NCBI RefSeq assembly: GCF_031412415.1
Contig: NZ_JANOCX010000138.1
Location: 1 to 38,677, forward strand
DNA: 38,677 nucleotides
From: Phenylobacterium sp.
Lineage (GTDB): Bacteria; Pseudomonadota; Alphaproteobacteria; Caulobacterales; Caulobacteraceae
Direction of reading: 5' to 3'
A program made the position numbers and the translations under genes. Of the stretch, positions 115-29,619 are shown piece after piece. Each line of letters opens with the position of its first letter. Position 1 is the stretch's first letter. The notes beneath the pieces were generated by a model, which was given only the letters and a program-made list of their open reading frames with translations, was not told the DNA's origin and searched no databases.

Positions 115-432
115 CTATCGGCTGGTGTTGTCGGTGATCGCCTTGAGCGCGCCGCCGAGCATGTTCTGAAGCGGTCCCAGCGCGCCGGCCATGATGCCGC
201 CCACGCCGCCGCTCGAGGGACCAGCGGCCGTCTTGAGGTTCTGGAGCCGGGTCCAGAGGTCGTTCATTTCAAGCTCGAGATTGAAATTCGGCTTGGAGCC
301 CGCGCTGGAGGCCGTGGCCACCAGGACGGCGATGAACGCCTTGCGACTGTCGGCCATCGGGACCTTGCCCAAGGCCTCAAGGATGGCAGGCGACAGCAGC
401 GCCCCGCCCATGAGCTTGCCAATTCCGAACAT
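115..432 (-). CDS. Small Gly/Ala-rich hypothetical protein (105 aa), candidate T6SS-associated
   Basis: ATG at 432 with GGAG about 7 nt upstream; host-like GC3; putative promoter motif at 462-488; downstream hairpin; no recognisable domain. Confidence 0.7.
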   Translation of the reverse strand: MFGIGKLMGGALLSPAILEALGKVPMADSRKAFIAVLVATASSAGSKPNFNLELEMNDLWTRLQNLKTAAGPSSGGVGGIMAGALGPLQNMLGGALKAITDNTSR

Positions 433-461
433 CCTACCACTCCGTGTTGCCTCTAGCTCAT

Positions 462-488
462 AGGCGTAGCGTGAGGGACTGACGGGTC
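462..488 (-). promoter_or_regulatory. Putative ECF promoter GACCCG-N16-CGCCT
   Basis: Minus strand reads gcgtGACCCG tcagtccctcacgcta CGCCTa, ending about 30 nt before ATG 432. Confidence 0.65.
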
Positions 489-533
489 ACGCCGCGCGCG
501 GTCGCGGCGATCGGCGGGCGCCAGGCGGCGAGA

Positions 534-1016
534 TCAGAACTGCCGGCCGGCGAGGAAGTTCTGGTACATGCTCTTCAGTTCGGGATCGAGATTGTTGGTG
601 TGCATGAACATGCCGGTCACCACGACGATCTTGTCTGCAGCCATGTCGACGGCATAGGCGTAACCCTTAGCCGGCTGCGGCAGGTTTTTCATGTACTTCG
701 CAGCGATCTTCAGCAACACCTTATACATTGCAGCCACTTCCTCTGGCGGAGGCAGCGGATATGTACGATTCATCTTGTCGATCTTCTGAGCAAAACTAAT
801 CAATACGTCGTAATCAGCCTTGTATCCTTTGACTTTCTCGTAATAACCCATACCATCGACGCAGGTTTTTAGCGTCTTCTCCATATAGGGCATATGAAAT
901 TGAGAGGTGTAGTTGGAACTATTGAACGCCTTCACGAGCTTGTGGACGTTCTCGATCAACTGCTTGGAATCCATCGCTGAGACCTTGCCGGTCGCCCAGT
1001 CGATAAACGTGCTCAT
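534..1016 (-). CDS. Hypothetical, probably helical protein (160 aa) with AT-rich core; candidate T6SS effector/accessory
   Basis: ATG at 1016 with GGAG RBS; stays open through an AT-rich stretch; K/Y/M-rich; no signal peptide or known motif. Confidence 0.8.
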   Translation of the reverse strand: MSTFIDWATGKVSAMDSKQLIENVHKLVKAFNSSNYTSQFHMPYMEKTLKTCVDGMGYYEKVKGYKADYDVLISFAQKIDKMNRTYPLPPPEEVAAMYKVLLKIAAKYMKNLPQPAKGYAYAVDMAADKIVVVTGMFMHTNNLDPELKSMYQNFLAGRQF

Positions 1017-1099
1017 CGTCAGCTCCAGTCAGATCTTTCGGCGGCGCGGGACCACCCCGGCCGCGCCTGTCGCGATGCGCGAGGGGGCGTCGTTCGAAT

Positions 1100-1126
1100 A
1101 GGCGTCTACGGCGAGGATTTCGGGTC
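1100..1126 (-). promoter_or_regulatory. Putative ECF promoter GACCCG-N16-CGCCT
   Basis: Minus strand reads gcGACCCG aaatcctcgccgtaga CGCCTattc, upstream of ORF 534-1016. Confidence 0.65.
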
Positions 1127-1183
1127 GCGAGCGATGCGCCGGCGCCGCGTGGACGGCTGACGAGCCGCATGACCGGAACGCGT

Positions 1184-1210
1184 GACCCGAAAGCGGCCCG
1201 CCTTGCGCCT
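1184..1210 (+). promoter_or_regulatory. Putative ECF promoter GACCCG-N16-CGCCT of the clpV-hcp-vgrG operon
   Basis: gcgtGACCCG aaagcggcccgccttg CGCCTt, about 80 nt before clpV ATG. Confidence 0.65.
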
Positions 1211-1292
1211 TTCTAACAGGGGCAGGAACAGAGGCGCGGGCGTACGCCGTCAGCGCCTGTCCTGGTGAGAACTTTCACAGGAGTCGGGCGAC

Positions 1293-3995
<2,703 letters not shown>

Positions 3996-3996
3996 A

Positions 3997-4476
3997 ATGG
4001 CTATCTACCTCGATATCGCCGGCATCAAGGGCAAGAGCGGACACGACAACTACAAGGACTGGATCGTGGTCCAGAGCATGCACTGGGGCGTCGAGAACGA
4101 CGCGAAGACCACGGTCGGCGTCGCGGGCAGCCGCATGCCCGCCGGCAAGATCACGCCGCACGACGTCAGCATGATGAAGGAAATGGATCAGTCGACGGTG
4201 CCGCTGATGAAGCTGGTGTTCGCCGGCACCAACCAGGCCAAGGCCCGGATCGTCGTCACCCAGTCAACCGACAGCGGCGACGCCTATCTCGAATACACGC
4301 TGACCAACGCCATCGTCTCCAGCTTCCAGACCTCGGCCAACAGCGAAGGCCTGCCCATCGAGAACTTCGCCATCAACTTCACCAAGGTCGAGGTGAAGGC
4401 GAACCCCACCTCCGCGACGGGCGGCTCTCAGCAGGTCGTCGGCGAGTACGACTTCGAGAAGGCTAAGGCCGGTTAG
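3997..4476 (+). CDS. hcp: T6SS tube protein Hcp/TssD
   Basis: 159 aa; IYLDIAGIKG..KDWI.VQS..WG, KEMDQST, P.ENFAINFTKV; starts 1 nt after clpV stop. Confidence 0.93.
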   Translation: MAIYLDIAGIKGKSGHDNYKDWIVVQSMHWGVENDAKTTVGVAGSRMPAGKITPHDVSMMKEMDQSTVPLMKLVFAGTNQAKARIVVTQSTDSGDAYLEYTLTNAIVSSFQTSANSEGLPIENFAINFTKVEVKANPTSATGGSQQVVGEYDFEKAKAG

Positions 4477-4519
4477 CGAAATCGGCGCCGGCCAACGGCG
4501 GCCCGCGCCACCGGCCGGG

Positions 4520-4547
4520 CGCCGCGACTCCGCCATGAGTCGCGGCG
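4520..4547 (+). other. Perfect 11-bp inverted repeat between hcp and vgrG
   Basis: CGCCGCGACTC-cgccat-GAGTCGCGGCG. Confidence 0.7.
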
Positions 4548-4581
4548 ACCTCGTCGGTTTGCATGCATCGGTGAGTAAGGA

Positions 4582-6435
4582 ATGAGTTCCGAACGCGATC
4601 CGAATACGTTCCTTCGTCTCTACAAGGCGCCGGGCGTTCTGGAGAACTACTTCGTCTCCGAGCTTCAAGGCGAGGAGTGCCTCTCCACGCCCTTCCTGTT
4701 CACGTTGACGGTGCGGTCGCTGGGCGACATTCCCGACGTGAAGGATTGGATCGGCGCCTCGATCACCTTCGGCATGGGCGCCTCCGACAGCAATCTGCGC
4801 AAGGTCAACGGACAATGCGTGCGGCTGGAGCAGACCTACCATAAGGCCGAGTACGTCGAGTTCGTGATCGACGTCGCGCCTCTGTTCGCGCGCGCCAAGC
4901 ATCGCAGCGACTGCCGCATCTTCACCGACATGACCGCGATCGACGTGATCCGGAAGGTGCTGGGCGAGCACCGCCTATCGTTCGACTCCTCGAAGGTGAC
5001 GTCGGCCAATGAGGTACGGGAGTACTGCGTTCAGTACTGGGAGACCGACTTCGACTTCTGCTCGCGCTTGATGGAAGAAGAGGGGATTTTCTACTACTTC
5101 CTGCACGATGAAGACGCCGGAAACGGCGAGCACACTATGTACATCGCCGACGACGAGACCGCGTTCTTCGATGGCGAAGTTTTCGAGATCACCTTCCGCG
5201 AGGACGAGCATCACAAGGGCCTGACCACCATCGACCTGCAGCACATGCAGATGACCAGCGCCTGGATGAGCCACGACTACAACTTCAAGAAGCCGCACGC
5301 GCTGACACCCATCAAGAGCTCGACCAAGCTCAGCTATCCGGCCAAGAACACCAAGCTCTACGAGTGGCCCGGCCGCTACGACAACATGAACTCCGGCGAT
5401 CGGATGGCCAAGTTCGGGATCGAGGAGGCCGAGGCCGCCTCGGTCATCATGTCGGGGACCGGCACCTATATGGGCTTCATGCCGGGAGCCCGGCACCTGA
5501 TCGTCGACAAGCGGCTGAAGCCTGCCGAGCGCAAGGTCGCCGTCCGGTCCGTCAAGCACTACTGCCACAATCCCAAAAGCCTGTCGGAGGGTGCGTTCGA
5601 CTACCAGCAGTCGTTCACCGCCGTGCGCAGCTATGAACCGTACCATCCGCCCCGGACCACGCCGCGCGCCATCGTGCGCGGACCCCAGACCGGCGTCGTG
5701 GTCGACCAGGTCGATCCTGAGGGCTACGGACGGGTCAAGGTCCGCTTCCATTGGGACCACGCCAACAGCTCCAGTTGCTGGCTTCGCGTCGCTCAGCAAT
5801 GGGGTGGCGACCAGATCGGAGCTCAATGGATTCCGCGCGTCGGCATGGAAGTGCTGGTCGTGTTCCTGGAGGGAAACCCCGACCGGCCAATTGTTTCCGC
5901 GTGCCTCTACAACGGTGAGAACAAGCACCCCTTCCCGGTGCCTGACAACCTGTCCCAGGCCGGCTGGCGCACGCGCAGCCACCCCAAGGGCGATGTGGTC
6001 AACGCCTTCATCTTCGAGGACAAGGCCGACGCCGAAGAGATCTACACCTATGCCGGCCGCAACTATCGCCGGGAGGTCATCAAGGACGAGGACGTCGACA
6101 TCGGCGGTTTCCGAACCACCAAGATCGGCAAGGACGAAACCCGCGAGATCGGCGGCCAGCGTCGCACCAAGATCGGCAAGGACCAGTTCACCGAGGTCGG
6201 CGCCTCCTCCCAGACCGTGGTCAAGCGGGGCGCCCACCTGAAGGTCGGCGAGGGTCTGGGCGTCGAGGTGAAGGGTGACATCCGCATCGACAGCAACTCG
6301 GCCACCAAGATGGTGACCACTGGCAGCTTCACCCTGGAATCCCTGACCCAGCTGGTGTTCCAGGTCGCGGGCAACCGCATCGAGATCACCGCCGCCGGCG
6401 TGACGATCAACGGCGCCCTGGTGAAGATCAATTGA
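4582..6435 (+). CDS. vgrG: T6SS spike protein VgrG/TssI, no effector extension
   Basis: REYCVQYWETDFDFCSRLMEEEGIFYYF; GPQTGVV; GRVKVRFHWD; CWLRVAQ; PRVGMEVLVVFLEGNPDRP; C-terminal gp5-like beta-helix repeats. Confidence 0.97.
   Translation: MSSERDPNTFLRLYKAPGVLENYFVSELQGEECLSTPFLFTLTVRSLGDIPDVKDWIGASITFGMGASDSNLRKVNGQCVRLEQTYHKAEYVEFVIDVAPLFARAKHRSDCRIFTDMTAIDVIRKVLGEHRLSFDSSKVTSANEVREYCVQYWETDFDFCSRLMEEEGIFYYFLHDEDAGNGEHTMYIADDETAFFDGEVFEITFREDEHHKGLTTIDLQHMQMTSAWMSHDYNFKKPHALTPIKSSTKLSYPAKNTKLYEWPGRYDNMNSGDRMAKFGIEEAEAASVIMSGTGTYMGFMPGARHLIVDKRLKPAERKVAVRSVKHYCHNPKSLSEGAFDYQQSFTAVRSYEPYHPPRTTPRAIVRGPQTGVVVDQVDPEGYGRVKVRFHWDHANSSSCWLRVAQQWGGDQIGAQWIPRVGMEVLVVFLEGNPDRPIVSACLYNGENKHPFPVPDNLSQAGWRTRSHPKGDVVNAFIFEDKADAEEIYTYAGRNYRREVIKDEDVDIGGFRTTKIGKDETREIGGQRRTKIGKDQFTEVGASSQTVVKRGAHLKVGEGLGVEVKGDIRIDSNSATKMVTTGSFTLESLTQLVFQVAGNRIEITAAGVTINGALVKIN
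6118..6183 (+). repeat. 18-bp direct repeat within vgrG gp5-like repeats
   Basis: ACCAAGATCGGCAAGGAC at 6118-6135 and 6166-6183, both encoding TKIGKD. Confidence 0.8.
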
Positions 6436-7073
6436 ACGCCCAGGCGCCCCTCGACGCCGCCGGCCGGGCCATCGATCCCGGCTTCCCGGGCCTGCGTCCG
6501 TTCGACAGCGACGAAGCGCCCGCGCCGGCCCGCCGCAGGGCCGAGCTGATCGCCGGACCGGGACCGGCCGGCTGGCGCGAGATCATCGACAGCTTCTCGG
6601 CCGATCCCGGCGGCGGCGGACCGTTGCTGCGGACCCTCGCCTGGGGACTGGCCACCGAACGCCTGCTGCGCTGGATGTGCCTGGCCGCCCGTCTGGAGGA
6701 GATCGTCAGCGAACGGAAACGCCAGTCTCAAGCTCTCATCACCGCCGAGCGGTGGCTGCGCGAGCAGGACGACACCTTGCGCTACGAGGCCTACCGGCAG
6801 GGCCAGGCCGAGAACTTCGAGACGCCCGCGGCCATGGCGGCCCTGGCCACCTTCGTGTCGGGGCCTTCCCTGGCGCCGGCCGACGCGCCGGCCGAGCCGC
6901 CCGCGCCCGGACTTGGCCGCGCGTCGGCGACCTCGGTGCTGATGGCCGTCGCGGGATCGGATGCGCTTACCGTCGACGGCTTTGGGCGCGTCAACAAGAT
7001 CGGCCTGGACCTGGCGCGCGGAGGCGACGGCCGGTCCGGCGCGCGCGACGCTCTGACCGGAGCCGTCGGATGA
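6432..7073 (+). CDS. vgrG-coupled protein of unknown function (DUF6931-like)
   Basis: TTG start overlaps vgrG stop; pattern RW.CL..R...AL..AE.W...R..A....FETPAAMAALA.F.SG.SLAP...P.P resembles proteins commonly found after vgrG. Confidence 0.7.
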   Translation: MNAQAPLDAAGRAIDPGFPGLRPFDSDEAPAPARRRAELIAGPGPAGWREIIDSFSADPGGGGPLLRTLAWGLATERLLRWMCLAARLEEIVSERKRQSQALITAERWLREQDDTLRYEAYRQGQAENFETPAAMAALATFVSGPSLAPADAPAEPPAPGLGRASATSVLMAVAGSDALTVDGFGRVNKIGLDLARGGDGRSGARDALTGAVG

Positions 7074-7089
7074 GCAGGACAAGCACGCC

Positions 7090-8625
7090 ATGTTTCTTCT
7101 GAGACTCTTTCATCAGAGCAACCCCACCCGGCAGGTCGACTCCCGGTCGCTGGCGCAGGGCGAGCTGATGATTGGCCGCGATCCTGGGCAGGGCTGGCGG
7201 ATCGATGACCCGGATCGGCAGATTTCGCGGACCCATTGCACGGTGGCGGTACGGGGTGACGGCTTGTTCGTCCGCGACTCCAGCGCCAACGGCATCATCC
7301 TGGGTCGCACCCAGGAGAGGCTGCCCGCCGACCAGTTCGTCCCCCTGGCGCTGGGCGAAAGCCTGATCATCGGCAAGTTCGTGATCGTCGTGGAGCAGGC
7401 CACGAGCGACGCCTTCGGCGAATCCACGTTCGACCCCCCGCCCCTGGCCCGACGCGACACCGGCCCCTCCCCGTTCGCGCCACCACCTGGCCTTGGCGAT
7501 CTGCGCGGCCTGTCGACCCCGCGAGAGCCCGATCCATTCGCCAGCGAACTGAAGCGCACGCCGCTGGACGCCGATCCCTTCGGTTCCGACCCGCTCGACC
7601 GCGCTGTCGGGCGCAGAGGGCCGTCATCGATCGACGAGGACGCCTGGCAACGTCGCGAGCCCGGCCGGGTCGGCGACTGGAACGGACCGACGGAGCATCG
7701 CGCGGTCAGCCACGAGACCCTCATCGGCTCGGCCCGCGAGTGGTCCGAGCCGCCCAGCGCCGGATTGCCGGAGGTCGGCTTCGGCTTCGACGCGCCGTTC
7801 CACCGCCCGATCCTGAAGGCCGAGCCGGTGCCAGCGGAGGCCCTGATCATCCCCTCCGACTGGGAGGCGCCGCCCCCGGCCACGCCGCCGTCCGCTCCGG
7901 TGGAGGTCGCGGCCAGTCTCGTCGTCGTCCCGCCGCCGGCCCCGATCGTGGCCGAGCCGCCGCCGCGCCCCGCGCCTGTGGCCGTCGCCGCGCCGCCGCC
8001 CATCGTGCAACCGGCCGCCGTCGCCACGCCCGGCGGCGACGCTCTGTTCAGGGCCTTCTGCGAAGGCGCGAATCTCGATCCGGAGGAATTCGTCGGCGAG
8101 GATCCGGCTGCGGTCCTGCAGCGGGCCGGCGCCATCTATCAACAGATGGTGCTGGGCCTTGGCGACCTGCTCAGCGAGCGAACGTCCCTGAAAAACGAAT
8201 ACCGCATGGCCCGAACCACAGTCGCTCCGGAGGGCAACAACCCCTTCAAATGGGCGCCGGCCCGCCGGGTGGCGGTGGACCTGTTGCGCGGCGCCAACGA
8301 CGGTTTCATGAGCGGCCCACCGGCCGTGCGCGAGTCGTTCGAGGACCTGAAGAAGCACCTGCTTTGCCTGCTGGCGGGGATGCGGGCCTCCATCGCCTCG
8401 GCCTTGAACGCGCTCAGTCCGCCCAGCGTCGAGGCGCACCTGAAGGGTCAGTCCTTCGTCATCAAGGCCAGCCGCGGCGCAGCGGCCTGGTCTGAGTATT
8501 CGCGCCTTCACGCCGAGTTCCAGCGCCAGGCCGACGACAACCCCGACAGCCAGATCAATCGCGATTTCCGCGCCGCCTACGAACAACAGCTTGGAGAGCT
8601 CGATGGCCTCAGCGCACGCCGATAG
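7090..8625 (+). CDS. tagH: T6SS FHA-domain protein TagH/Fha
   Basis: FHA motifs IGR, ISRTHC, D.SANG; Pro-rich linker; C-terminal NNPFK and FEDLKKH. Confidence 0.93.
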   Translation: MFLLRLFHQSNPTRQVDSRSLAQGELMIGRDPGQGWRIDDPDRQISRTHCTVAVRGDGLFVRDSSANGIILGRTQERLPADQFVPLALGESLIIGKFVIVVEQATSDAFGESTFDPPPLARRDTGPSPFAPPPGLGDLRGLSTPREPDPFASELKRTPLDADPFGSDPLDRAVGRRGPSSIDEDAWQRREPGRVGDWNGPTEHRAVSHETLIGSAREWSEPPSAGLPEVGFGFDAPFHRPILKAEPVPAEALIIPSDWEAPPPATPPSAPVEVAASLVVVPPPAPIVAEPPPRPAPVAVAAPPPIVQPAAVATPGGDALFRAFCEGANLDPEEFVGEDPAAVLQRAGAIYQQMVLGLGDLLSERTSLKNEYRMARTTVAPEGNNPFKWAPARRVAVDLLRGANDGFMSGPPAVRESFEDLKKHLLCLLAGMRASIASALNALSPPSVEAHLKGQSFVIKASRGAAAWSEYSRLHAEFQRQADDNPDSQINRDFRAAYEQQLGELDGLSARR

Positions 8626-8636
8626 GGGCTCCCGCC

Positions 8637-9983
8637 ATGTACGGCGATAACAAGGTCCTCTGGGCGGAGGGCATGTTCCTTCGCACCCAGCACTTCCAGC
8701 AGTTCGACCGCCATGTCGAACGGCTGGCCCGCGACGGCCTGCAGGCGCTTCGGCCCTTCGCGTTCGGGTTCACCAGCCTGGAGATCGACGAAGCTCTGCT
8801 GAAGACCGGCGTCGTCGCCTTGTCGAAGGCGTCCGGCCTGCTGCCCGACGGCACCCTGTTCAGCCTGCCGGAGAGCGACGACCATCCGGCGCCCTTCGAG
8901 GCCCCCGCCGATCTGCGGGAGTCGGTGATTCATCTGGCCCTGCCCATCCGCCGGGCCGGAAGCGTCGACTCCAGCCTGGAGGTGAATCCCGACCGCAACG
9001 TCCGCTGGCTCGGCCAGGAGATCGAGGTCGCCGACAGCCTGGACGAGACCACCGTGCGCGCGCCGATCACTGTGGGGAAATTGGACCTGCGCCTCCTGCA
9101 CGACCGCCAAGAGCTGGCCGGCTACGTCACCCTGCCGATCGCCCGGATGATGGAGAAGCGCGTCGACGGCTCGATCATCCTGGATCCGGAGTTCATCCCG
9201 ACCGCGCTGACCTGCGACGCCGCGCCCAAGCTGCGCAGCTTCGTGTCGGAGATCCTGGGCCTGCTGACCCATCGCGGCGGGGCGATCGCCGCGCGGCTGA
9301 GCGGATCCGGCGGCAAGGGTACGGCCGAGATCACCGACTTCCTGGTGCTGATGCTGGTGAACCGCAACGAGAGCCTGTTGCGGCATCTGGGCGCCCTGCC
9401 AATGCTGCATCCCGAGGAGCTCTATCGGTTCTTGACCGGCCTGGCCGGCGAGCTCGCCACCTTCACCGAAAGTTCCACCAACCGTCCGCCCACCTTGCCC
9501 GAGTATCGGCATGTGGCCTTGCAGGAGTCCTACGCGCCCCTGATGGCTTTCCTGCGCGACGCGCTCAGCGCGGTGTTCGAGCAGACCGCCATCCCGATCC
9601 CGCTGGAGCAGCGGCCGTTCAACATCAGCGTCGCCAAGATCACCGACCGCTCGCTGTTCACCGACTGCATCTTCGTGCTGGCCGCCAAGTCATCCATCGA
9701 CGCGGAGAAGGTGCGCCTGAACCTGCCGCGCCGCACGACCATCGGGCCGGTCGAGCGCATCCGGGACCTGGTCAACCTACAGCTCGGCGGCGCGCCGATC
9801 CGCCCGTTGCCCACCGAGCCCCGGCAGATCCCATTCCGCGCCGGCATGGTCTACTTCGAGGTCAACACCAACGCCGACGACTGGAAGATCGTCGAGCGCT
9901 CGGGCGGCGTCGCCATCCATGTCTCCGGCGAAGTGCCTGATCTCACCCTCGAGCTCTGGGCCATTCGAGGGCGCGTCCGTTGA
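8637..9983 (+). CDS. tssK: T6SS baseplate protein TssK
   Basis: KVLWAEGMFLRTQHFQQFDR; HPEELY; PRQIPF; LELWAIR. Confidence 0.97.
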   Translation: MYGDNKVLWAEGMFLRTQHFQQFDRHVERLARDGLQALRPFAFGFTSLEIDEALLKTGVVALSKASGLLPDGTLFSLPESDDHPAPFEAPADLRESVIHLALPIRRAGSVDSSLEVNPDRNVRWLGQEIEVADSLDETTVRAPITVGKLDLRLLHDRQELAGYVTLPIARMMEKRVDGSIILDPEFIPTALTCDAAPKLRSFVSEILGLLTHRGGAIAARLSGSGGKGTAEITDFLVLMLVNRNESLLRHLGALPMLHPEELYRFLTGLAGELATFTESSTNRPPTLPEYRHVALQESYAPLMAFLRDALSAVFEQTAIPIPLEQRPFNISVAKITDRSLFTDCIFVLAAKSSIDAEKVRLNLPRRTTIGPVERIRDLVNLQLGGAPIRPLPTEPRQIPFRAGMVYFEVNTNADDWKIVERSGGVAIHVSGEVPDLTLELWAIRGRVR

Positions 9984-11329
9984 GCGGAAAAGACCCCTTC
10001 AGTTTCGGCGAGGAAGAAGGCGACCGCACCGTGATCGGCGGTCGCGCCGCGCCTCCGGACGCCGGCGATCGGACGATGATCGGTCCCTCGACCGCGCGAC
10101 CGGCCTTCGCGCCGCGCGTGGTGATGCTGGAAGACCTGGAGACCACCGGCAACAATCCGCTGCTGGCCGCTGCGGCCCCGCTGATCACCCTGGTCAACGC
10201 CCTGCGCTCGGCGACCCAGCCCGGCGACATCGGCCAGCTCCGCCAGACGGTCATCGACGAGCTTCGCCGGTTCCAGCAGGTGGCTCGCGCTCGCGCCGCG
10301 CCCGACGACGAGGTCCGTCACGGGCACTACGCGCTGTGCGCGCTGATCGACGAGGTGGTGCTCTCGACCCCCTGGGGCTCGAAGAGCGCCTGGCCCAAGC
10401 AGAGCCTGGTCGCCACCTTCCACAACGAAGTGGTCAGCGGCGACCGGATGCTGGAGATCGCCGAGGCCCTGGAGGCCCGGCCGAACCGCTCGCCCAACCT
10501 GCTGGAGCTGATCTATCTCTGCCTGTCCTTCGGCTTCGAGGGCCGTTTGCGGCTGGAGACCCAGGGCGCCAACCGACTCTTCCAGATGCGCGAGCGGATC
10601 TACAACGCCATCCGCCAGGTTCGCGGCGCCTTCGAGCGCGCCCTGTCGCCCAAGTGGCGCGGCGTGGACGCGGGCTATCAGCCCATCGCCAAGGACATCC
10701 CGCTGTGGGTGTTCGGCGCGGCCTTCGCCACCCTCGCCCTGCTGGTCTATGCCGGGTTCCTGTTCAGCCTTTCCAGCCTCGGGGATCGGGCGTTGAAGCC
10801 GCTGACCGGCCTCTATCGCGCCGGGGCGCCCGCGCTAAACCGCACCGCGCCGCCGCCGGTCGTGGCCGACAGCCGCCTGTTCCTCACCATCCTGGACATC
10901 CTGAAGCCTGACATCGACGCCGGCCGCGTGGCGGTCACCGACAGCCCTGACGCGGTGCTGGTGCGCCTGAAGGACAAGGGCCTGTTCGCCTCGGGCTCGG
11001 CCCAACTGGACGCCGACTATGGCGAGACCATCGCGCGCCTGGCCCAGGCCATCGACCTGACCGTGGGGACCGTCGCGGTGACGGGTCATACGGACAACCA
11101 ACGCATCCGCTCGCTGCAGTTCGCCTCCAACCAGGAGCTCTCCGAGGCTCGCGCCAACGGCGTGATCGCGCAACTGACCGGCCGCGGCATCGACGAGGGG
11201 CGGCTCAGCCCCACCGGCCTTGGCGAGAGCCAGCCCGTGGCCGGCAACGAGGACCCTGACGGCCGCCGCCAGAACCGGCGGGTGGAAGTGACCATACCCA
11301 AGACCTATGCGGCGGGAGCGCAGCCATGA
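9980..11329 (+). CDS. tssL: T6SS membrane protein TssL/DotU with C-terminal OmpA/MotB peptidoglycan-binding domain
   Basis: NPLLAAA; YALCALIDE; LELIYLCLSFGFEG; one TM; GHTD..N.ELSEARA..NRRVEV; TTG start overlaps tssK stop. Confidence 0.96.
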   Translation: MSGKDPFSFGEEEGDRTVIGGRAAPPDAGDRTMIGPSTARPAFAPRVVMLEDLETTGNNPLLAAAAPLITLVNALRSATQPGDIGQLRQTVIDELRRFQQVARARAAPDDEVRHGHYALCALIDEVVLSTPWGSKSAWPKQSLVATFHNEVVSGDRMLEIAEALEARPNRSPNLLELIYLCLSFGFEGRLRLETQGANRLFQMRERIYNAIRQVRGAFERALSPKWRGVDAGYQPIAKDIPLWVFGAAFATLALLVYAGFLFSLSSLGDRALKPLTGLYRAGAPALNRTAPPPVVADSRLFLTILDILKPDIDAGRVAVTDSPDAVLVRLKDKGLFASGSAQLDADYGETIARLAQAIDLTVGTVAVTGHTDNQRIRSLQFASNQELSEARANGVIAQLTGRGIDEGRLSPTGLGESQPVAGNEDPDGRRQNRRVEVTIPKTYAAGAQP

Positions 11330-14300
11330 ACCGCGTCGCCGCCTTCTTCCAGGGTCTGGGACGCATCCGCATACCGCGCTGGACCATGGTGGTTCTGGGC
11401 GCGGTGATGCTGGCAATCCTGGTCTGGTTCGTGGGCCCGCTGATCGGCATCGCCAAGTGGACACCCCTGGCCAGCTGGTGGGTCCGGCTGATCGTCATCG
11501 CTCTGATGGCGTTGGGCGTGGGCGGCTACTACGCCCTGCGCGAAGTCCGTCGTGGGCGCGAGAACGCCCGGATGATGGCCGAGCTCGGTCCCAGCACCGA
11601 GACCGCGCCGAGCGACGACTATTCGGCCGAAGACATCAAGGCGATGAACGAGCGCGCCAAGGAAGCGCTGGAAATGATGCGCACGACGCGCATCGGCAAG
11701 AACCGGGAGTTCGTCTACGAACTGCCCTGGTACCTGATCATCGGCCCTCCCGGCGCCGGCAAGACCACGGCCCTCCACAACGCCGGCCTGAAGTTCCCGG
11801 TGTCCCAGGAAGCCGGCGCCTCGCCGCTCAAGGGCATCGGCGGCACGCGGAACTGCGAGTGGTGGTTCACCGATCAGGCCGTGATGATCGACACGGCCGG
11901 CCGCTACACCCTGCAGGACAACCACGCCGTCACCGACGGGAAGGCCTGGCAGGGCTTCCTCGAGATCCTGGCGCGCTACCGGCCTCGCCAGCCGGTGACC
12001 GGGATCATCGTGGCCCTGTCGGTGCAGGATCTGATGGGCGGGGACGAAGCCGACATCGCCGCCCACGGCCGGGCGATCCGCGCCCGCCTGAACGAGGTGG
12101 CGCAGAAGCTGGGCGTCCGCGCGCCGGTCTATGTCGTGGTCACCAAGATGGACCTGCTGGCGGGGTTCAACGAGTTCTTCGACGACGCCGGACAGCCCGA
12201 GCGCGACCAGGTCTGGGGCCACACCTTCGACATCGAAGCCTCCCGCGCCGGAACCACCGGGGCGGAATACGAGACCGGCTTCTCAGGCCTGATCGGACGG
12301 CTGAACGACCGGCTGCTCAGCAGGGTTCAGGGCGAGCGCGACATCCAGCGCCGCGGCCTGATCTTCGGCTTCCCGCAACAGATCGTCGGACTGAAGGGGC
12401 CCCTCGCCTCGGTCCTGCAGATCATCGGGCGTGAGACCAAGTATGAGCCGACGCCGCTCATCCGCGGCGTCTACCTGACCAGCGCCGCGCAGTTCGGCCG
12501 GCCCATCGACCGGTTGATGGGCGCCATCTCCGCCAAGTTCGGCCTGGACGTGGTGGCCCAGGGCGCCGCCGCCGGCGCCGGGCGCAGCTACTTCCTCCGC
12601 GACCTGCTGCATTCGGTCATCTTCCAGGAAGGCGCGCTGACCGACCGCGATCCCAAGACCGAGCGCCGTCGCCGCCTGATGCGCAACGGGGCGATCGTGG
12701 GCGGCGCGGCGGTCCTGGTTCTGATCTCGACGCTTTGGCTGGGAAGCTATCTCCGCACGGCCAGCCTGCTGCGGCAGCTGGAGACCCGCTCCGCCCACCT
12801 GCAAAAGACTGTCGCGGCCCTGCCTTCCGGCGACGTCAGTGACAGCGACATCACCCAGGTCCTGCCCGCGCTGGACGAGGCGCGCGCCCTGCCCTTCGCC
12901 TCCACCGCGCCCAAGGCGCTCCGCCCACCCGCGATCGGCCTTGGGCTTGGCCGCCGCAAGGCGGTCCAGACCCAGGTCGACGCCGCCTACGCCAACCTCC
13001 TCAACCAGCAGATGCTGCCCCGCCTCATCCTCACGCTGGAGGACGATCTGCGCTCGTCGCTGCAGGGCGGAACGACGCCGGGCGTCGACAATCGGCCGGC
13101 GATCTACAACCTGCTGCGGACCTACCTGATGCTGGGTCGCGCGCCGGGCGCGCCCCTGGAGAAATCGCAGATCTCAACCTGGTTCGCCGGCGAATGGGCC
13201 AACCGCTACGCCAGCGCCGAGGACGATCCGACCCGCGCGGCCCTCGAGCGCCATCTCGACGCCCTGCTGGCCAGCCGCATGACCTCGCCGGCCCTGGACC
13301 GCGACCTGATCGCTCAGGCGCGGGAGCGGGTGCGTAGCCTGGGCGCCGGGGAACGGGCCTACGCCCGGATGCTGTCGGACCCGAGCCTGGAGGACCTGAC
13401 GCCGTTCAACATCGTCGACATTCCCTCGGTGGGGACCTCAGGCCTCTTCGCCCGCCGGTCGGGCAAGTCTCTGACCCTGGGCGTTCCCGGCCTCTACCGC
13501 CGGCAGTATTTCTACTCGACGATCATGCCGGCCATCGCCAAGGCCGCGAGCCTCTCGGTGAACGAGAGCTGGGTGACCAACGAGAAGCCGACGCCGGGAC
13601 CAAGACTGCCCGACGCCGGCGCGATCGGCCGGACCAAGGACGAGATCCTTGTCGCCTATCTGAAGGACTTCACGCGCCACTGGGACGACTTCATCGCCGA
13701 CATCACGATCAGCGGCGAGCATAGCGCCGGCGAGCGGATTCAGGTCGCCACCCGGCCACCTTCCCCCGTGAAGCTGTTGATCAACGCCCTGGCCGCGGAG
13801 ACCAACCTGACCCCGCCAAGACTGACGGGCAAGGGTAGCGGTAGCGGCGGAGCGGCGGCGGCGGCCGTGCGGGTTGGGGCGATCTTCTCGTCCCGCATCT
13901 ATCGCGGCATGTCCCAGGCCAACGCCGTGGGCTACGCGGTGAACAACGGCCAGGGCCGGGCCGGGCCGCCTGGCCCATTGGACGAGGTGATCGCGCACTT
14001 CAAATGGCTGCAGGACATGAACCCCGCCCAGGGTCCCTCGCCATTGGATCCTGCCCTGGCGGCCCTGGCAGGGGTCGGCGACTCGGCCATAGCGGCCCAG
14101 GCGGCGGCGGGCCTTGGAGATCCCCTCCTCCAACGCACCAAGACCAGTTCGGCAATGGAGGCCACCGCGCGCCTCGACCAGACGGCCGCCACCCTGCCGC
14201 CCATGGTGCAGGGCATGTTCACCGGCTTTGTCCGGACCTCCTCGGCCCAACTCAACAAGAGCGTCAAGCAGTCGATCCAGGGCGGATACGCCGCGGAGCT

Positions 14301-14955
14301 CCTGCCCCAGTGCCAGTCGATCGTGCGGCAAGGCTTCCCGTTCTCCGACTCCGACCACCAGGCGACCATCGACGATCTCAGTCGGTTGCTGCGTCCCAGC
14401 GGACTGATGGATCAGTTCGTGCAGGACAACCTGGCGGGCATGGTCGAGATGACCTCCGGCGGCTGGTCGATCACGCCGGCGGGGCGTGTCCTGGGGCTGC
14501 AGCCGGCCTCGATCCGTGAGTTCGAGCGCGCCGACCGCATCCGCAAGCGGATGTTCATGCCGGGCGACGTGCGGCCCAACGTGCGGTTCCTGCTGGAGCC
14601 CGTGCAGATCGGGGGCGAGGCGAGCGGCGTGGCGATCTCCGTCGACGGGGTTCCAGCCTCCTTCGACAGCGTCAATCGCCGGCCCGTTGAGATGAAGTGG
14701 CCCGGCCCGACACCCGGGGTCACCCTGACCTTCCAGAAGCGAAATGGCGCGCCGGCCACGCGAACGTGGAGCGGCGACTTCGCCCTCTTCCGGATGGTGC
14801 GGACCAGCCGGGTGATCGCTTCGTCCAACAAGAGCCTGACCTTCGAGGTGTCCGAGGGCGGCGCCCAGGCCAGATTCACGATGCGGTTCCTGAACACCTC
14901 CAACCCGTTCAATCTGAGCGACCTCCGCAGCTTCTCATGCCCGGGGCGCCTCTGA
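11326..14955 (+). CDS. tssM: T6SS membrane protein TssM/IcmF
   Basis: Two N-terminal TMs; YELPWYLIIGPPGAGKTT; GGTRNCEWWF; IDTAGRY; third TM; 1209 aa. Confidence 0.97.
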   Translation: MNRVAAFFQGLGRIRIPRWTMVVLGAVMLAILVWFVGPLIGIAKWTPLASWWVRLIVIALMALGVGGYYALREVRRGRENARMMAELGPSTETAPSDDYSAEDIKAMNERAKEALEMMRTTRIGKNREFVYELPWYLIIGPPGAGKTTALHNAGLKFPVSQEAGASPLKGIGGTRNCEWWFTDQAVMIDTAGRYTLQDNHAVTDGKAWQGFLEILARYRPRQPVTGIIVALSVQDLMGGDEADIAAHGRAIRARLNEVAQKLGVRAPVYVVVTKMDLLAGFNEFFDDAGQPERDQVWGHTFDIEASRAGTTGAEYETGFSGLIGRLNDRLLSRVQGERDIQRRGLIFGFPQQIVGLKGPLASVLQIIGRETKYEPTPLIRGVYLTSAAQFGRPIDRLMGAISAKFGLDVVAQGAAAGAGRSYFLRDLLHSVIFQEGALTDRDPKTERRRRLMRNGAIVGGAAVLVLISTLWLGSYLRTASLLRQLETRSAHLQKTVAALPSGDVSDSDITQVLPALDEARALPFASTAPKALRPPAIGLGLGRRKAVQTQVDAAYANLLNQQMLPRLILTLEDDLRSSLQGGTTPGVDNRPAIYNLLRTYLMLGRAPGAPLEKSQISTWFAGEWANRYASAEDDPTRAALERHLDALLASRMTSPALDRDLIAQARERVRSLGAGERAYARMLSDPSLEDLTPFNIVDIPSVGTSGLFARRSGKSLTLGVPGLYRRQYFYSTIMPAIAKAASLSVNESWVTNEKPTPGPRLPDAGAIGRTKDEILVAYLKDFTRHWDDFIADITISGEHSAGERIQVATRPPSPVKLLINALAAETNLTPPRLTGKGSGSGGAAAAAVRVGAIFSSRIYRGMSQANAVGYAVNNGQGRAGPPGPLDEVIAHFKWLQDMNPAQGPSPLDPALAALAGVGDSAIAAQAAAGLGDPLLQRTKTSSAMEATARLDQTAATLPPMVQGMFTGFVRTSSAQLNKSVKQSIQGGYAAELLPQCQSIVRQGFPFSDSDHQATIDDLSRLLRPSGLMDQFVQDNLAGMVEMTSGGWSITPAGRVLGLQPASIREFERADRIRKRMFMPGDVRPNVRFLLEPVQIGGEASGVAISVDGVPASFDSVNRRPVEMKWPGPTPGVTLTFQKRNGAPATRTWSGDFALFRMVRTSRVIASSNKSLTFEVSEGGAQARFTMRFLNTSNPFNLSDLRSFSCPGRL

Positions 14956-15590
14956 TGATCGGACCTGGCTTCAATACGGGCGCGTTCGGCAAGCTTCCCT
15001 GCGCGGGCGATTTCGTCCGGCGCAGGCTGCGGGCCGACACCATCACCGAGCTCGATCTTTGGCTTCAGGTTCGTCTCGCCGACGATCCTGGGGGCGAACC
15101 GCCGGACGCGGCGACGCCATGCCGCTTCGCCGCGGCGCCTGGGGTCTTCGGAGTGATGGCGGTCATGGGCTTGATCTGGCCCAGTCGAGACAGCGTGGGG
15201 CGAAGCTTCCCCTTCGTGATCGCCGTCGAGGCCGGGCCGCGCACGGCGCACGTCTACGACCTGGACCTCGACTGGTTCGACCTCGCCGAAGTCGCCTTGC
15301 GGCGAAGCATCGACTTCGCGAGCCTGGACGACCTGGACCGCGCGCTGTCCGATCTGCAGGCCTCCGTGGGACTGGGCGCAATCAACCAGCGCATTGAATT
15401 CCCTGCGCCGGCCTCCCTATGGTGGGCGCCGACAGACATCCATGACGCGCTGGCCTTGGCGGGGCAGCCTGACGCCGAGGCCTTCGCCGCGCTCACCTCA
15501 TCCTGGCGAGAGCCACCGGAAGCCGACCCGGTGACAACCCCCACGCCGACCACACCCTTAGAAGCCGGTTCGAAAGGCGCGCCAATATGA
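14955..15590 (+). CDS. tagF: T6SS negative regulator TagF
   Basis: FGKLP..GDFV and PSRDSVGRSFP; start placed at ATG 14955 overlapping tssM stop (track start 14697 lies inside tssM). Confidence 0.9.
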   Translation: MIGPGFNTGAFGKLPCAGDFVRRRLRADTITELDLWLQVRLADDPGGEPPDAATPCRFAAAPGVFGVMAVMGLIWPSRDSVGRSFPFVIAVEAGPRTAHVYDLDLDWFDLAEVALRRSIDFASLDDLDRALSDLQASVGLGAINQRIEFPAPASLWWAPTDIHDALALAGQPDAEAFAALTSSWREPPEADPVTTPTPTTPLEAGSKGAPI

Positions 15591-16381
15591 GCCCCGGTTC
15601 CATAAGCTTCGAATCCGCCGCCAGGACCCATGTGGGGCTGGTCAGGCAGTTCAACGAGGACAACTTCGTAGACCGACCCCTCGTGGGCCTGTGGGCCGTC
15701 GCCGACGGCATGGGCGGTCACTCCGCGGGGGATGTGGCCAGCGGCCTGATCGCCGAGGCCCTGAACGGCGTCGACACCATGACCACCGGCTTCGCCTTCC
15801 TGGACGAGGTCCGTGAGAACATCATGCGGGTCAACCGGACCCTGGTGGCGAAGGCTTCCTTGCTGCCTGCCGGCACCGTGATCGGCTCGACCGTGGTGAT
15901 CGTGCTGGCCTATGGCGGGCACTACGCCTGCCTGTGGGCCGGCGACAGCCGCGCCTATCTCCTGCGCGGAGGTGAGTTTCGTCGGATCTCGCGCGACCAC
16001 AGCATGGTCCAAGAGCTGATCGACACCGGCAACCTGAGCCAGGCTGAAGCCCGCGGACACCGGCGCTCCAATGTCATCACCCGGGCGGTCGGCGTGCATC
16101 CCGAGCTCTTGGTGGACATGAGCGAGGGCGTCATCGAGCCAGGCGACATCTTCCTGCTTTGCTCCGACGGCCTGACCGGCATGTTGGAGGATGACGAGAT
16201 CGCCGGCATGCTGACCGGCCCGTCCCTGGACGACGTCGCCGAAAACCTGATCGCCCAAACGCTCGAGCGCGGCGCCAGAGACAATGTCACCGTGATCCTG
16301 GTTCGCGCCGCCGCCAGTCCAGACGATACGGTGGATGGCCAGGCGGCGCCGACGACGGCGACCGGCCACTGGGGTCCCTAG
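15587..16381 (+). CDS. pppA: PP2C/PPM Ser/Thr phosphatase PppA
   Basis: R..NED; VADGMGGH; GDSRAY; LLCSDGL; DNVT. Confidence 0.94.
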   Translation: MSPGSISFESAARTHVGLVRQFNEDNFVDRPLVGLWAVADGMGGHSAGDVASGLIAEALNGVDTMTTGFAFLDEVRENIMRVNRTLVAKASLLPAGTVIGSTVVIVLAYGGHYACLWAGDSRAYLLRGGEFRRISRDHSMVQELIDTGNLSQAEARGHRRSNVITRAVGVHPELLVDMSEGVIEPGDIFLLCSDGLTGMLEDDEIAGMLTGPSLDDVAENLIAQTLERGARDNVTVILVRAAASPDDTVDGQAAPTTATGHWGP

Positions 16382-17454
16382 GCGGCCGCGGCGCGCTCTC
16401 GCGGACGCCATCGCGCATCAAGGATGGCGTCCTCGCGATCCCGTTCCGGCGGACGCGACACGACCCACGTGGTCTGTCCCAGCATGGCCGGGTTGTCGCG
16501 GTCGCCGAGCCGGATGTTCGGTACGTCCTCCTTGCGCAGGACCAGCTGAAGGTCGAACTCGACCGCCGGTCCGACCGAGAGGCGCACGAGGTCCACCAGG
16601 GCGCGCCGATAGGGGCCGCGGTCCAGGAAGCGGCGGAAGGTCGCCAGGTCCAGGGGACCGATCCGGATGCGGAACCGGCTCTGAACGTCCCAGACCTGAG
16701 ACCCCAGCACGGCGGTCTGGCCCAACACTGCGTACGTCTTGGCCCCTGAGGCGCCGCTCAGTTGGGTCTGTTCGGCGGGGTCAATGGCGATCCATCGCCC
16801 CTGCAGCTCCACCACCGTCATCGGCAGATCATACAGCGCGCTCAGCGTGCGGCGCAGGCCGTCGGCCGACCGGACTCGCCGCGACATGGGACCGGCGACA
16901 CTGAGCAGTTCGCCGCCATCCAGCGAGAGCCGGGCGCGCGACGAGTCCAGGCCAAGGCCGATCATCGACGCCAGGGCGCGGCTGAACGGATCGTCCAGCG
17001 GCCGGGCGGCCTCCTCGTAGCGGATCGGCAGCCGGTACTTGGCCCAGGCCCGATAGAACAGGCCGATGGTCCGATGATTGAACAGATCGAGGAAGTCGCT
17101 CGCCGCGGGGCTACGCGCCTGGCGCTGGGCGACCAGCAACTCGCTGTAGTAGTCCGGCAGAACCCCCATGGGCCCGGTGAGCCCCAGGAACGACACGGTG
17201 AGTTCGGGAACACCGTCCTCTGGCCGGGTGTGAGCCGCCACGATCTCGTTGGCAGGATGGCGCATCCCGACGGCCGCGCGGAAACGGACAGGATCGTCCC
17301 GGGGCCGAAGCGCCAGGCCACCCTTCGGCCGCCCGCCGCCGCGGCGGGCCAGCCGATGGAAGAGACGCACGATCTGAAAGAAGCTCGAAGACGACGCCGT
17401 CGTCTGCAGCCGCTCGATCAGATCAGCCGCCGCGTGCCGGTTCTCGCGTGCCAC
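16378..17454 (-). CDS. tssG: T6SS baseplate protein TssG
   Basis: FFQIVRL; FLGLTGPMGVLP; FLDLFNHR..LFYRAW.KYR; FRIRIGPL; GTG start at 17454 overlaps tssF end by 37 nt. Confidence 0.93.
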   Translation of the reverse strand: MARENRHAAADLIERLQTTASSSSFFQIVRLFHRLARRGGGRPKGGLALRPRDDPVRFRAAVGMRHPANEIVAAHTRPEDGVPELTVSFLGLTGPMGVLPDYYSELLVAQRQARSPAASDFLDLFNHRTIGLFYRAWAKYRLPIRYEEAARPLDDPFSRALASMIGLGLDSSRARLSLDGGELLSVAGPMSRRVRSADGLRRTLSALYDLPMTVVELQGRWIAIDPAEQTQLSGASGAKTYAVLGQTAVLGSQVWDVQSRFRIRIGPLDLATFRRFLDRGPYRRALVDLVRLSVGPAVEFDLQLVLRKEDVPNIRLGDRDNPAMLGQTTWVVSRPPERDREDAILDARWRPRERAAAA

Positions 17455-19238
17455 GCCTGCCAGATTCCTTTCTCGCCCTTGAGCCTCAGCCGCACCCGGG
17501 TGAAGGCGTTGATCGCCGCCAGTCCGGAGAAGGCGGCCTCCAGCACAGCGCCCAGCATGAATGTCCCCGTGCCCGACAGGCGCCGATCGTCGAATTCCAG
17601 GGTGATGTCGGTGCCGCTCGTGAAGGCGATCCGCCCGCCGCCCGGGGCGCGGGCGACGCTCGGGGCGGTGGACACGTCCGTCAGGCGCTCGATGACCGCC
17701 CGGCTTCCGGAGGCGTCGGCGTGGTCGTAGAGCGCCAGCATCTCCTTCACTAGGTCGGTGGCCAGTCCGTCGTCGGCGACGGAGAGGTGGTTCAAGGAGA
17801 GGTGCGAGATCAGACGCCACAGGTTGGCGTGGCCGCGACGGGTGCGCAGGGCGCGGCTGGGCGCGATCAGGCAGGCGCATCCGGCGGCGCCGACCTCATG
17901 GTTCAATCTCAACCGCGGCCGACCGGCGCCGAATGGCAGTTGCTCGGGCAGGTTCCGGTTCGTGGCGGTGACGTCGATGGAGGCCACCAGATCGCGGTCG
18001 CCCGCGGCCTGTCCCTCCTCGTCGACCACGGAAAGGAAGACGTCATCTCCACCGCCCTCGTAGGTGCTGGCGCGCCGCGTCGTGTGCCAGAACCGATTGA
18101 CCGCCTCGCGCGCGACCTGCCGACGACCGAAGGAGAAGAATGGGCTGAAGGGCATCTCCGCCCCGTTGCGGTCGGAGACCACAACCTTGTCGACCGAGTA
18201 GACCTCCATGCTGGTCTCGCGCCGCGCGTCGGGCACCACGCGATACTCGAACCGGCCTGGGTCGAGGCGGATCGGGTCGGCCTTGGCCGGGAACAGGTTG
18301 ATGATTGGCGTGCAGAACAGCCGGAAGTCGGATTTGCTGATCAGCCCTTCCAGCGCCGGGTCATAGCGGTCGATGTAGAGGAAAATCTCCATCGTCCGGC
18401 CAGCCTTGAGCAGAGTCTTGGCTGACAGTCCCTCGATGTCGAAGAACAGGAACTTCTCCGGGAACGCGAAGTACTCGCTGAGCAGAGCGTAGCCTGGCTC
18501 CGACCCGGCGCCGAGCGGCAAGAGGACCTCATCTCGGGTGAGGCCCACAGGCTTGATCGCCGAAGGATCGAGGATGATCGGGGCGTCGTCGGCGGCCGAG
18601 TCCGCCAGGGCGATCGAGACGACGCCGCCGGTGACCAGCTCGTACAGGATCTGCGAGGTTCGGGACTCGCTGTGGATATGGAACCGCAGGCGATCGAGGC
18701 CGAGGTCGGAGAAGGTCTTGTCCGACGCCGTGCAGGTTAGGCTGAAACGCAACGCGCAGAGCGCCGCGCCGGCCTTCCGGTTGGTCGGCGCCACCAGCGG
18801 CAGTCCCGACAGCGAAACCTGGGTCAGCTCGACCGGCCACAGCTCGACGTCATAGCCCGTACGGTATTCGCAGGTCTCTTCGTCCACCGGCTCCGTGGTG
18901 ATCTGGGCGCCCGCCGCAATGGTGGTCTGCCCCACCGTCGTGGCGTGCGGCGAGAACTCGGCGACGCACATCGAGGGGATCGGCGAGAGATAGTGCGGAT
19001 AGAGCAGCCCCAGCAGCGATTGGGTCAGCTCGGGGAACTCGTCGTCCAGCTTCATCCTCAGCCGCGCGTTGAGGAAGGCGAAGGCCTCGATCATCCGCGA
19101 GACGTGGGGGTCCTCGACGGCGTCCTGCGACACGCGCAGGCGGCCGGCGATCTTCGGATTGGCGGCGGCGAAGTCCTTCGCCATCTCGCGCATGAACCGG
19201 AGTTCGCTGTTGTAGTAGGGGAGCAGGTCGTCGAACAC
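17418..19238 (-). CDS. tssF: T6SS baseplate protein TssF
   Basis: LLPYYNSEL; DPHVSRMIEAFAFL; EYFAFPEKFLF; CTPIINLF; WRLISHLSLNHLS; GTG start at 19238. Confidence 0.96.
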   Translation of the reverse strand: MFDDLLPYYNSELRFMREMAKDFAAANPKIAGRLRVSQDAVEDPHVSRMIEAFAFLNARLRMKLDDEFPELTQSLLGLLYPHYLSPIPSMCVAEFSPHATTVGQTTIAAGAQITTEPVDEETCEYRTGYDVELWPVELTQVSLSGLPLVAPTNRKAGAALCALRFSLTCTASDKTFSDLGLDRLRFHIHSESRTSQILYELVTGGVVSIALADSAADDAPIILDPSAIKPVGLTRDEVLLPLGAGSEPGYALLSEYFAFPEKFLFFDIEGLSAKTLLKAGRTMEIFLYIDRYDPALEGLISKSDFRLFCTPIINLFPAKADPIRLDPGRFEYRVVPDARRETSMEVYSVDKVVVSDRNGAEMPFSPFFSFGRRQVAREAVNRFWHTTRRASTYEGGGDDVFLSVVDEEGQAAGDRDLVASIDVTATNRNLPEQLPFGAGRPRLRLNHEVGAAGCACLIAPSRALRTRRGHANLWRLISHLSLNHLSVADDGLATDLVKEMLALYDHADASGSRAVIERLTDVSTAPSVARAPGGGRIAFTSGTDITLEFDDRRLSGTGTFMLGAVLEAAFSGLAAINAFTRVRLRLKGEKGIWQAWHARTGTRRLI

Positions 19239-19242
19239 GGCC

Positions 19243-19707
19243 CTAGTCCCGCACGACGACGCAGCGAACCGGATCGACGTGGCTGTCGAAACTGATCTGC
19301 TGGCGATCGCCCCCCAGGTCCACGAAGCCGATGATCCGGAAACGGAGGATGCGATCGATCGCATCCTTGTTCTCGATGATCGACACCTCGAAATTGGTGA
19401 TGCGGGGTTCCAGCCGCTGGATCAGGCCCTGGACCTCGGCGACGAACGCGCTCCGAAAGGCTTCTGACTTGATGGCGCCGTTGGTGAAGTCGGAGAGGCC
19501 ATAGCTCAGCAGCGAGCGGTCCAGCTCGTCCAGGTCGTCGGACCAGGAGAGGAACCGGCGCCGCGTGTTCAGGATCCCCTCCAGATCCCGGCGCAGGCCG
19601 TCGCGCAAGGCGCTGATCGAGATCGTATCCGTGCGCTTTTCGGACGGATCGTCCAGCAGGCGATCCAGCAGCGATCCCTGGCTGGCGGTTCGGGCGGGCG
19701 TGCTCAT
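19243..19707 (-). CDS. tssE: T6SS baseplate protein TssE (gp25-like)
   Basis: SLLDRL; RRDLEGILNTR; SLLSYGL.D; EPRI; ATG 19707 overlaps tagJ stop. Confidence 0.93.
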   Translation of the reverse strand: MSTPARTASQGSLLDRLLDDPSEKRTDTISISALRDGLRRDLEGILNTRRRFLSWSDDLDELDRSLLSYGLSDFTNGAIKSEAFRSAFVAEVQGLIQRLEPRITNFEVSIIENKDAIDRILRFRIIGFVDLGGDRQQISFDSHVDPVRCVVVRD

Positions 19708-20501: not shown

Positions 20502-20515
20502 CTAGGCTTCCCCTG

Positions 20516-22015: not shown

Positions 22016-22041
22016 GATGCCGCCCCGCGCCCCGCCCGCCG

Positions 22042-23541: not shown

Positions 23542-23545
23542 GGGT

Positions 23546-24055: not shown

Positions 24056-24135
24056 CGGTCAACCCTTCGGTGTCTTGGATAGAGTTTCGTAAATCAAGAT
24101 CGACTTCCGAGAACAACATTCTACGGATCTGGAAG

Positions 24136-29551: not shown

Positions 29552-29619
29552 TGACAGTCCCCGAGGCTCACGGCTCTCTGATGCTTGACTGGTCGGCTTA
29601 CATCAGAGGATTTACGGCA

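Follow-up and report, generated by a model that had tools for sequence, protein, structure and literature searches.

The locus studied here raises the question of whether a T6SS is switched on directly by a sigma factor encoded beside it. We analysed a window of 38,677 nt from Phenylobacterium sp., which is contig C138 of genome G000 (3.9 Mb, 68% GC). It contains a complete T6SS in two main operons, clpV(tssH)-hcp-vgrG-DUF6931-fha-tssK-tssL-tssM-tagF-pppA (1293..16381, + strand) and tssA-tssB-tssC1-tssC2-tagJ-tssE-tssF-tssG (16378..25236, - strand), along with a ppkA operon, a PAAR gene, a LysM gene, an ECF sigma factor gene and a receptor kinase gene. The two tandem tssC paralogs (20516-23541) also occur in related loci, and the block at 25410-29551, comprising ppkA (kinase plus HAMP), a polysaccharide deacetylase gene, a TPR gene and the LysM gene, accompanies this T6SS type in relatives. 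The genome gave single hcp, vgrG and PAAR matches. We identified no pair of effector and immunity genes in the window; a 144-aa ORF (29548-29982, -) probably shadows PAAR.

The sigma factor gene (30063..30638, -) scored 155.5 bits against TIGR02999 (cut-off 126.15) and matched PF07638 (E 6e-34). Its sigma2.2 reads QIQPTDLAHE, with QPTD replacing DAED and the threonine at T58, counted from the ATG at 30638; a replaced DAED with a threonine (QTTA-like) is the ECF43 signature given in the sections of PMC13147305 available to us. Divergent from this gene lies that of a Hanks-type receptor kinase (31071..33746, +), with a kinase domain (motifs GQGGMG, HADIKPNN with Ala for the usual Arg, DFG and APE), one hydrophobic helix (approximately 429-447) and TPRs (725-799). 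The two genes are adjacent and divergent in the window, G142 and G431, and the kinase gene lies directly downstream of the ECF gene in most other relatives.

Three intergenic copies of a spaced motif

The initial annotation had reported three exact copies of GACCCG-N16-CGCCT and read them as the promoter of this sigma factor. We recovered exactly three matches in the window, at 462-488 (-), 1100-1126 (-) and 1184-1210 (+). All are intergenic and directed into a gene, which starts 30, 84 and 83 nt beyond sites 1, 2 and 3, respectively, in agreement with the 30-85 nt described earlier. A longer form common to two of the three had also been noted; indeed, GCGTGACCCG is present at sites 1 and 3, and site 2 lacks the T. 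Site 1, TGACCCG-N16-CGCCT(A) (461..489, -; 24.7 bits), is the predicted ECF43 promoter of a 105-aa ORF. Site 2, CGACCCG-N16-CGCCT(A) (1099..1127, -; 15.4 bits), is a predicted weaker promoter of a 160-aa ORF, and site 3, TGACCCG-N16-CGCCT(T) (1183..1211, +; 25.5 bits), is the predicted promoter of the clpV-hcp-vgrG-fha-tssKLM-tagF-pppA operon.

These scores come from a profile built from 31 sites of relatives only, in which box columns hold 1.45-2.0 bits and spacer columns mostly less than 0.9 bits; the box values are inflated because the 31 sites had been picked with a near-exact pattern. Site 2, in which the consensus T is absent, falls below the training minimum of 16.9 bits. A first profile of ten sites was dropped because it overfitted a T-run. 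An Rfam search returned no match, the single sigma-70-like site in 1-1400 lies within the 160-aa ORF and is at chance level, and matches to GCCTATT upstream of tssA and of the ECF gene were set aside for want of a -35 box.

For a fixed pattern, the earlier estimate of about 0.1 chance matches in the window held (0.09-0.14): none of 100 dinucleotide shuffles of the window reached three matches, with 0.09 expected. It did not hold for a pattern chosen afterwards, given that, when the 25 upstream regions of the window were shuffled 300 times, 31 of the shuffles produced a 6+5 spaced word in at least three regions; the real regions also hold one GC-only 6+5 spaced word common to at least three of them. 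The evidence from the window by itself is only suggestive after this correction, and we therefore applied the pattern, unaltered, to further sequences.

The 105-aa ORF (115..432, -) has two homologs, and the 160-aa ORF (534..1016, -) has two close and two distant homologs of the same length. Pfam, NCBIfam and Atlas assigned neither ORF to a family, and three further long homology matches look like repeat artefacts. The earlier proposal that these orphan ORFs are tied to the T6SS retains the predicted co-regulation in its favour, but we found no homolog of them in any other locus examined. GC content is 50% in the 160-aa ORF and 55-57% in the 5' region of tssA (25000-25410), compared with 68% for the genome.

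The boxes are unchanged in a related strain

Low-depth contigs from three DNA runs, apparently from one related strain, provided a footprint of the sites. Relative to positions 433-533 of the window, this strain has 24 differences, which alter 6 of the 16 spacer positions of site 1 and none of its 12 box positions; at the local rate, the absence of box changes has a probability of about 0.02. The contig covering 1092-1292 has 30 differences, 29 of which are listed. Twenty listed differences fall within 1092-1292, none of them in 1100-1126 or 1183-1210, and 14 of these 20 lie in the 54 nt between sites 2 and 3. The related strain also carries an extra T in the run that follows site 3.

The motif tracks a clade of ECF43 sigma factors

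A refined pattern gave 22 matches in 11 of 17 ECF43-positive genomes, and 13 matches in 8 of 14 when the genomes that had shaped the pattern (G000, G155 and G205) were left out. It gave no match in ten T6SS genomes in which no ECF ortholog was found. The reversed control yielded two matches, and one further refined match was present in G038. The other 6 of the 17 ECF43-positive genomes had no refined match; G142, which has the closest ECF ortholog (74%), has none, only a CGCTT variant. Five genomes (G370, G173, G116, G401 and G431) have the motif and no tssC match. Four sites surround the ECF-kinase pair in G370, and one site lies just beyond the kinase in G173. Across family-level neighbourhoods totalling 649 kb, there were ten strict intergenic oriented matches at spacer 16 versus zero to one at 13 other spacers, the ten dropping to eight without two regions that had been chosen for a match.

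At ECF loci from other families of the order, the unchanged pattern matched in 7 out of 29, with 0.19 matches expected; other spacers gave zero to two matches, reversed and swapped patterns gave none, and allowing one mismatch raised the count to 16 out of 29. Most order-level sites point into the gene divergent from the ECF gene, and 12 of them are not independent because all precede one homologous gene family; the remaining sites precede the kinase gene and several unrelated families. Across all loci, the targets include clpV, hcp, the ECF gene itself, the kinase gene and several unrelated families, so the motif is not merely inherited DNA. In one further family, five out of five genomes matched, four of them within approximately 3 kb of the ECF gene, and two out of five matched in a second set. 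A one-mismatch site also lies beside an ECF43 gene outside the class (G1016). Profile sites of at least 17 bits numbered zero in the ECF-less T6SS loci (101 kb), seven in the ECF-linked loci (88 kb; four being training sites) and five around two further ECF genes (35 kb).

Among 79 more distant metagenome ECF43 loci, two matches at spacer 16 represented no excess. In another order, five genomes contributed eight ECF43 loci, which lacked sites of at least 17 bits and had no T6SS genes in their vicinity. The region-4 helix differs in many of the more distant ECF43 loci, and a plasmid search retrieved distant ECFs only. Since the motif occurs at ECF43 loci without a T6SS and shows no excess at distant ECF43 loci, it belongs to the sigma clade rather than to the T6SS or to ECF43 as a whole.

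Several features of these neighbourhoods deserve separate mention. A Gln/Asn-rich family of approximately 176-210 aa is repeatedly found next to ECF43 genes, in most cases behind the motif (L272:6180-6800 in G370, L153:1463-2089 in G155, L351, L321, L322, L352 and L358); some members have signal-peptide-like starts, the G370 member has no Pfam match, and the family may be a core regulon member. A membrane protein family of 182-191 aa, one member of which has no Pfam match, is encoded divergently from ECF43 genes and behind the motif in 12 loci (L319, L323-L327, L330, L331, L333, L334, L340 and L341). The G142 locus (L255-L256) still has the kinase gene in divergent orientation and a homolog of pppA, with no tssC match found, and is possibly a remnant or a source of the T6SS-linked module. 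In the order of G913, 106 out of 121 genomes carry TIGR02999 sigma factors, many with 10-25 copies.

Putative T6SS promoters of relatives

The ClpV type of the window, whose closest named relatives are from Caulobacteraceae, occurs in 12 family members, of which 11 have informative upstream regions (the twelfth has 14 nt upstream). The strict motif precedes clpV in 2 of the 11, G155 (160 nt) and G205 (35 nt); the genes neighbouring the site differ between the two, and both genomes carry an ortholog of the ECF, at 63% and 66% identity, respectively. No ortholog was detected at E<=1e-3 in G216, G137 or G111, and the remaining T6SS genomes, several of them 70-90% complete, were not among the matches at 1e-45. 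Thus, the expectation that the motif would recur in orthologous clpV promoters was borne out in the two relatives with the ECF ortholog but not in T6SS relatives in which no ortholog was found. This pattern suggests that, from lineage to lineage, T6SS loci of a single type are placed under an ECF43 or under some other control. In G205, the hcp-vgrG unit is split from clpV, and each unit has its own site.

Among 80 distant clpV loci, which together showed no motif excess, 35 upstream regions were scanned and the strict motif was confined to L064; its upstream sequence is matched by that of L087, and the two were counted once. In L088-L095, from T6SS relatives without the ECF, a different conserved spacer element, which includes TTGC...GCAAGCTT or GCAGGCTT, precedes clpV and is possibly another promoter type; the gene divergent from clpV in these loci has what we take to be a methyltransferase-like motif.

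Two further candidate sites in the window

Neither strict nor one-mismatch sites precede tssA, ppkA, the kinase gene or the ECF gene in the window. Autoregulation of ECF genes is common, not universal; the window's ECF gene has no site before it, and in G375 one site is directed into the ECF gene. Within tssA, at codons 32-41 or thereabouts, lies site 4, TGACCCG-N16-CGCTT (25116..25144, -; 16.2 bits), the genome's only match to its CGCTT variant pattern. The tssA gene of G205 has the same boxes at the same codons, with all five spacer codons differing in amino acid, and the box uses CTT, a codon rarely chosen for Leu in this genome (4.9% of Leu codons). The site is absent from the other mapped tssA genes, that of G155 included. 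The CGCTT variant also occurs in four of five ECF-less genomes, and we rejected it as a genome-wide discriminator, as it is common by chance elsewhere. Found in two related genomes, site 4 is a candidate internal promoter for tssB-tssC1-tssC2-tagJ-tssE-tssF-tssG, a role that we judge about evenly balanced between true and false. A transcript from site 4 covering tssB-tssG would account for the absence of a site before the tssA operon.

Site 5, TGACCTG-N16-CGCCT(A) (29998..30026, -; 19.3 bits), lies between the 3' ends of the PAAR and ECF genes and is directed antisense through PAAR toward lysM, the LysM/TPR gene at 28739..29551 (-). G205 has a site before its lysM gene. Site 5 might serve lysM, although we put the chances of this at somewhat under even.

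The motif is of modest use for finding effectors genome-wide

The initial annotation had also offered the motif as a means of finding unlinked effectors. The strict pattern matched 16 times in the genome at spacer 16, which is background when set against 7-24 matches at spacers 10-23, and most of the 13 matches outside the window lie inside ORFs. Restricting the scan to intergenic, oriented matches, based on rough gene calls, left four at spacer 16 and zero to three at spacers 8-25; the profile scan gave no genome-wide excess either. A 24.3-bit site on contig C94 falls within an ORF, which indicates the false-positive level of the profile. The value of the motif for effector searches is modest because 11-13 fixed bases amount to background in a genome of 68% GC.

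Only two intergenic candidates emerged outside the window, neither of them a proven effector. One (C97:1364-1392; 23.5 bits) lies 41 nt before a 226-aa ORF with DGTG and GYSRG motifs and an alpha/beta hydrolase fold. Its model reached a pLDDT of 90 (a single-sequence fold, with a pLDDT of 34, was discarded), and its best structural match was Legionella lpg2422 (TM 0.58), Tle-like entries ranking 15 and lower. It does not fit a Tle1-type T6SS effector, a class marked by a PF09994 domain, an immunity gene and linkage to vgrG: it has no PF09994 match, and PF09994 occurs in 3 of its 55 homologs. The ORF adjoins tRNA-Ser(TGA), a possible integration site (C97:472-561 and 643-1323); its neighbours are this tRNA gene and a long divergent ORF, and no small partner gene was called. 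The other candidate (C283:1970-1998; 17.3 bits) precedes a 265-aa lipoprotein-like ORF whose start the gene caller had placed too late.

Which factor reads the motif

The motif consists of two conserved boxes at a spacing of 16 nt, oriented into genes and co-occurring with the sigma clade, and this comparative evidence supports the -35/-10 architecture that had been ascribed to it. From sequence comparison, we consider it likely that TGACCCG-N16-CGCCT is the -35/-10 promoter recognised by one clade of ECF43 sigma factors that are activated by kinases, with the window's ECF (30063-30638) as its predicted reader here. That some ECF43 reads the motif is very likely, and that the linked one does so, alone or with cross-talk, is only slightly less so.

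Could the sites instead be chance matches in GC-rich DNA, chosen post hoc and common to relatives by descent? The spaced words in 31 of 300 shuffles, the background-level counts in the genome and the non-independence of kin all speak for this reading, but the fixed pattern recurs only at spacer 16, in four families and before unrelated genes, and spacer letters diverge while the boxes stay. The out-of-sample counts largely refute chance, which we regard as very improbable. A second possibility is that the boxes bind a relay factor resembling TagK, the AraC factor through which EcfK works in X. citri according to the parts of the review PMC13584744 available to us, or another factor that travels with ECF43 loci. 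A non-palindromic motif that always faces a gene, keeps its spacing fixed at 16 nt and comes to within 22 nt of start codons fits such a factor poorly; moreover, a Pfam scan of 35 window ORFs revealed no AraC or other regulator, and what the loci have in common is the ECF-kinase pair. We therefore hold this reading to be improbable.

A further alternative keeps the same kind of promoter and assigns its reading here mainly to a second ECF43, encoded with its own kinase on contig C220 (4479-5033), rather than to the T6SS-linked one. The C220 protein passes TIGR02999, is 45% identical to the window's ECF, has SESTVKR in region 4 as the latter does, and forms a basal branch of the clade in which the motif is often found next to the ECF gene. 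Its 7.4-kb contig has no site, however, and four to five of the genome's best intergenic sites are on the same contig as the window's ECF. G155, in addition, has a clpV site and a single ECF43 match, which lies within its T6SS locus, and this argues that the linked sigma factor suffices. We consider a leading role for the C220 protein unlikely, if a little less so than a relay. The attribution of the motif to the window's ECF is thus favoured by the -35/-10 form and by how the motif tracks the orthologs of this ECF, and it is tempered by the nearly identical region-4 helix of the C220 protein.

If the linked ECF43 is the reader, the TPR receptor kinase would sense an outside cue and phosphorylate T58 in QPTD, and the phosphorylated sigma factor would bind core RNA polymerase, both steps being modelled on EcfK and EcfP. 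Region 4 would read TGACCCG and region 2 CGCCT, and the holoenzyme would start transcripts a few nucleotides past CGCCT. Back-to-back promoters would then drive clpV...pppA one way and the 160-aa ORF the other, and the 105-aa ORF would be transcribed from a separate promoter; the sheath and baseplate genes would probably be transcribed from a start inside tssA. Control of the T6SS would be direct, with no AraC relay. The most far-reaching version strikes us as doubtful: the motif would serve a widespread ECF43 clade of Caulobacterales as its promoter code, some lineages would have rewired an entire T6SS under it, with a promoter inside tssA boosting the sheath genes, and the sigma factor would co-induce orphan effectors, among them the 105-aa and 160-aa ORFs and the Tle-like hydrolase beside tRNA-Ser.

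Comparison with known systems

As far as the accessible parts of the reports go, the closest parallel is PknS-EcfK(-TagK) of X. citri, where, as here, an ECF43-type sigma factor and a transmembrane TPR Hanks kinase are encoded in a T6SS locus (PMC13147305, PMC13584744). QATE of EcfK and QPTD of the window's ECF both place a Thr with an acidic neighbour in sigma2.2 (PMC13147305), and tagF, pppA, ppkA, fha and tagJ are common to the two loci. Unlike in X. citri, a sigma-type motif lies directly on T6SS operons here, with no AraC relay among the 35 scanned ORFs; the kinase gene is divergent from the ECF gene rather than at +1, and the host belongs to a different class. EcfP/PknT of Vibrio parahaemolyticus and the ECF43 of Hyphomonas neptunium likewise combine a DAED-less sigma2.2 containing Thr with a neighbouring kinase, although EcfP controls polymyxin resistance (PMC8999054, PMC8103513, in the sections available). 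Those sections contain no promoter sequence.

The portions of the 2021 ECF reclassification accessible to us describe group 43 with features also found here, namely PF07638, a one-helix kinase with TPRs, S/T in sigma2.2 and no anti-sigma factor (PMC7826278). Its predicted promoter for the group, GTC (-35) and CAG (-10), which is a prediction and not a grouping criterion, does not match TGACCCG/CGCCT. The form of our motif is nearer to that of ECF41/42 (TGTCACA or TGTCGAT with CGTC), and TGACC, GACCC, CGCC and GACC have zero occurrences in the available portion of the supplement text, which comes without logos (PMC7826278). We did not find the motif in the literature searched; Lima 2022 and Iyer 2020 may give experimental motifs.

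The design of a kinase-activated ECF43 is thus already known, and what appears to be new is a defined, testable -35/-10 pair for a clade. With such a pair, regulons of this clade can be predicted in four families belonging to one order, and a ready reporter becomes available for what TPR kinases sense. If an ECF43 promoter does lie on the T6SS genes, the sigma factor here would switch the secretion system on directly, where EcfK of X. citri acts through TagK.
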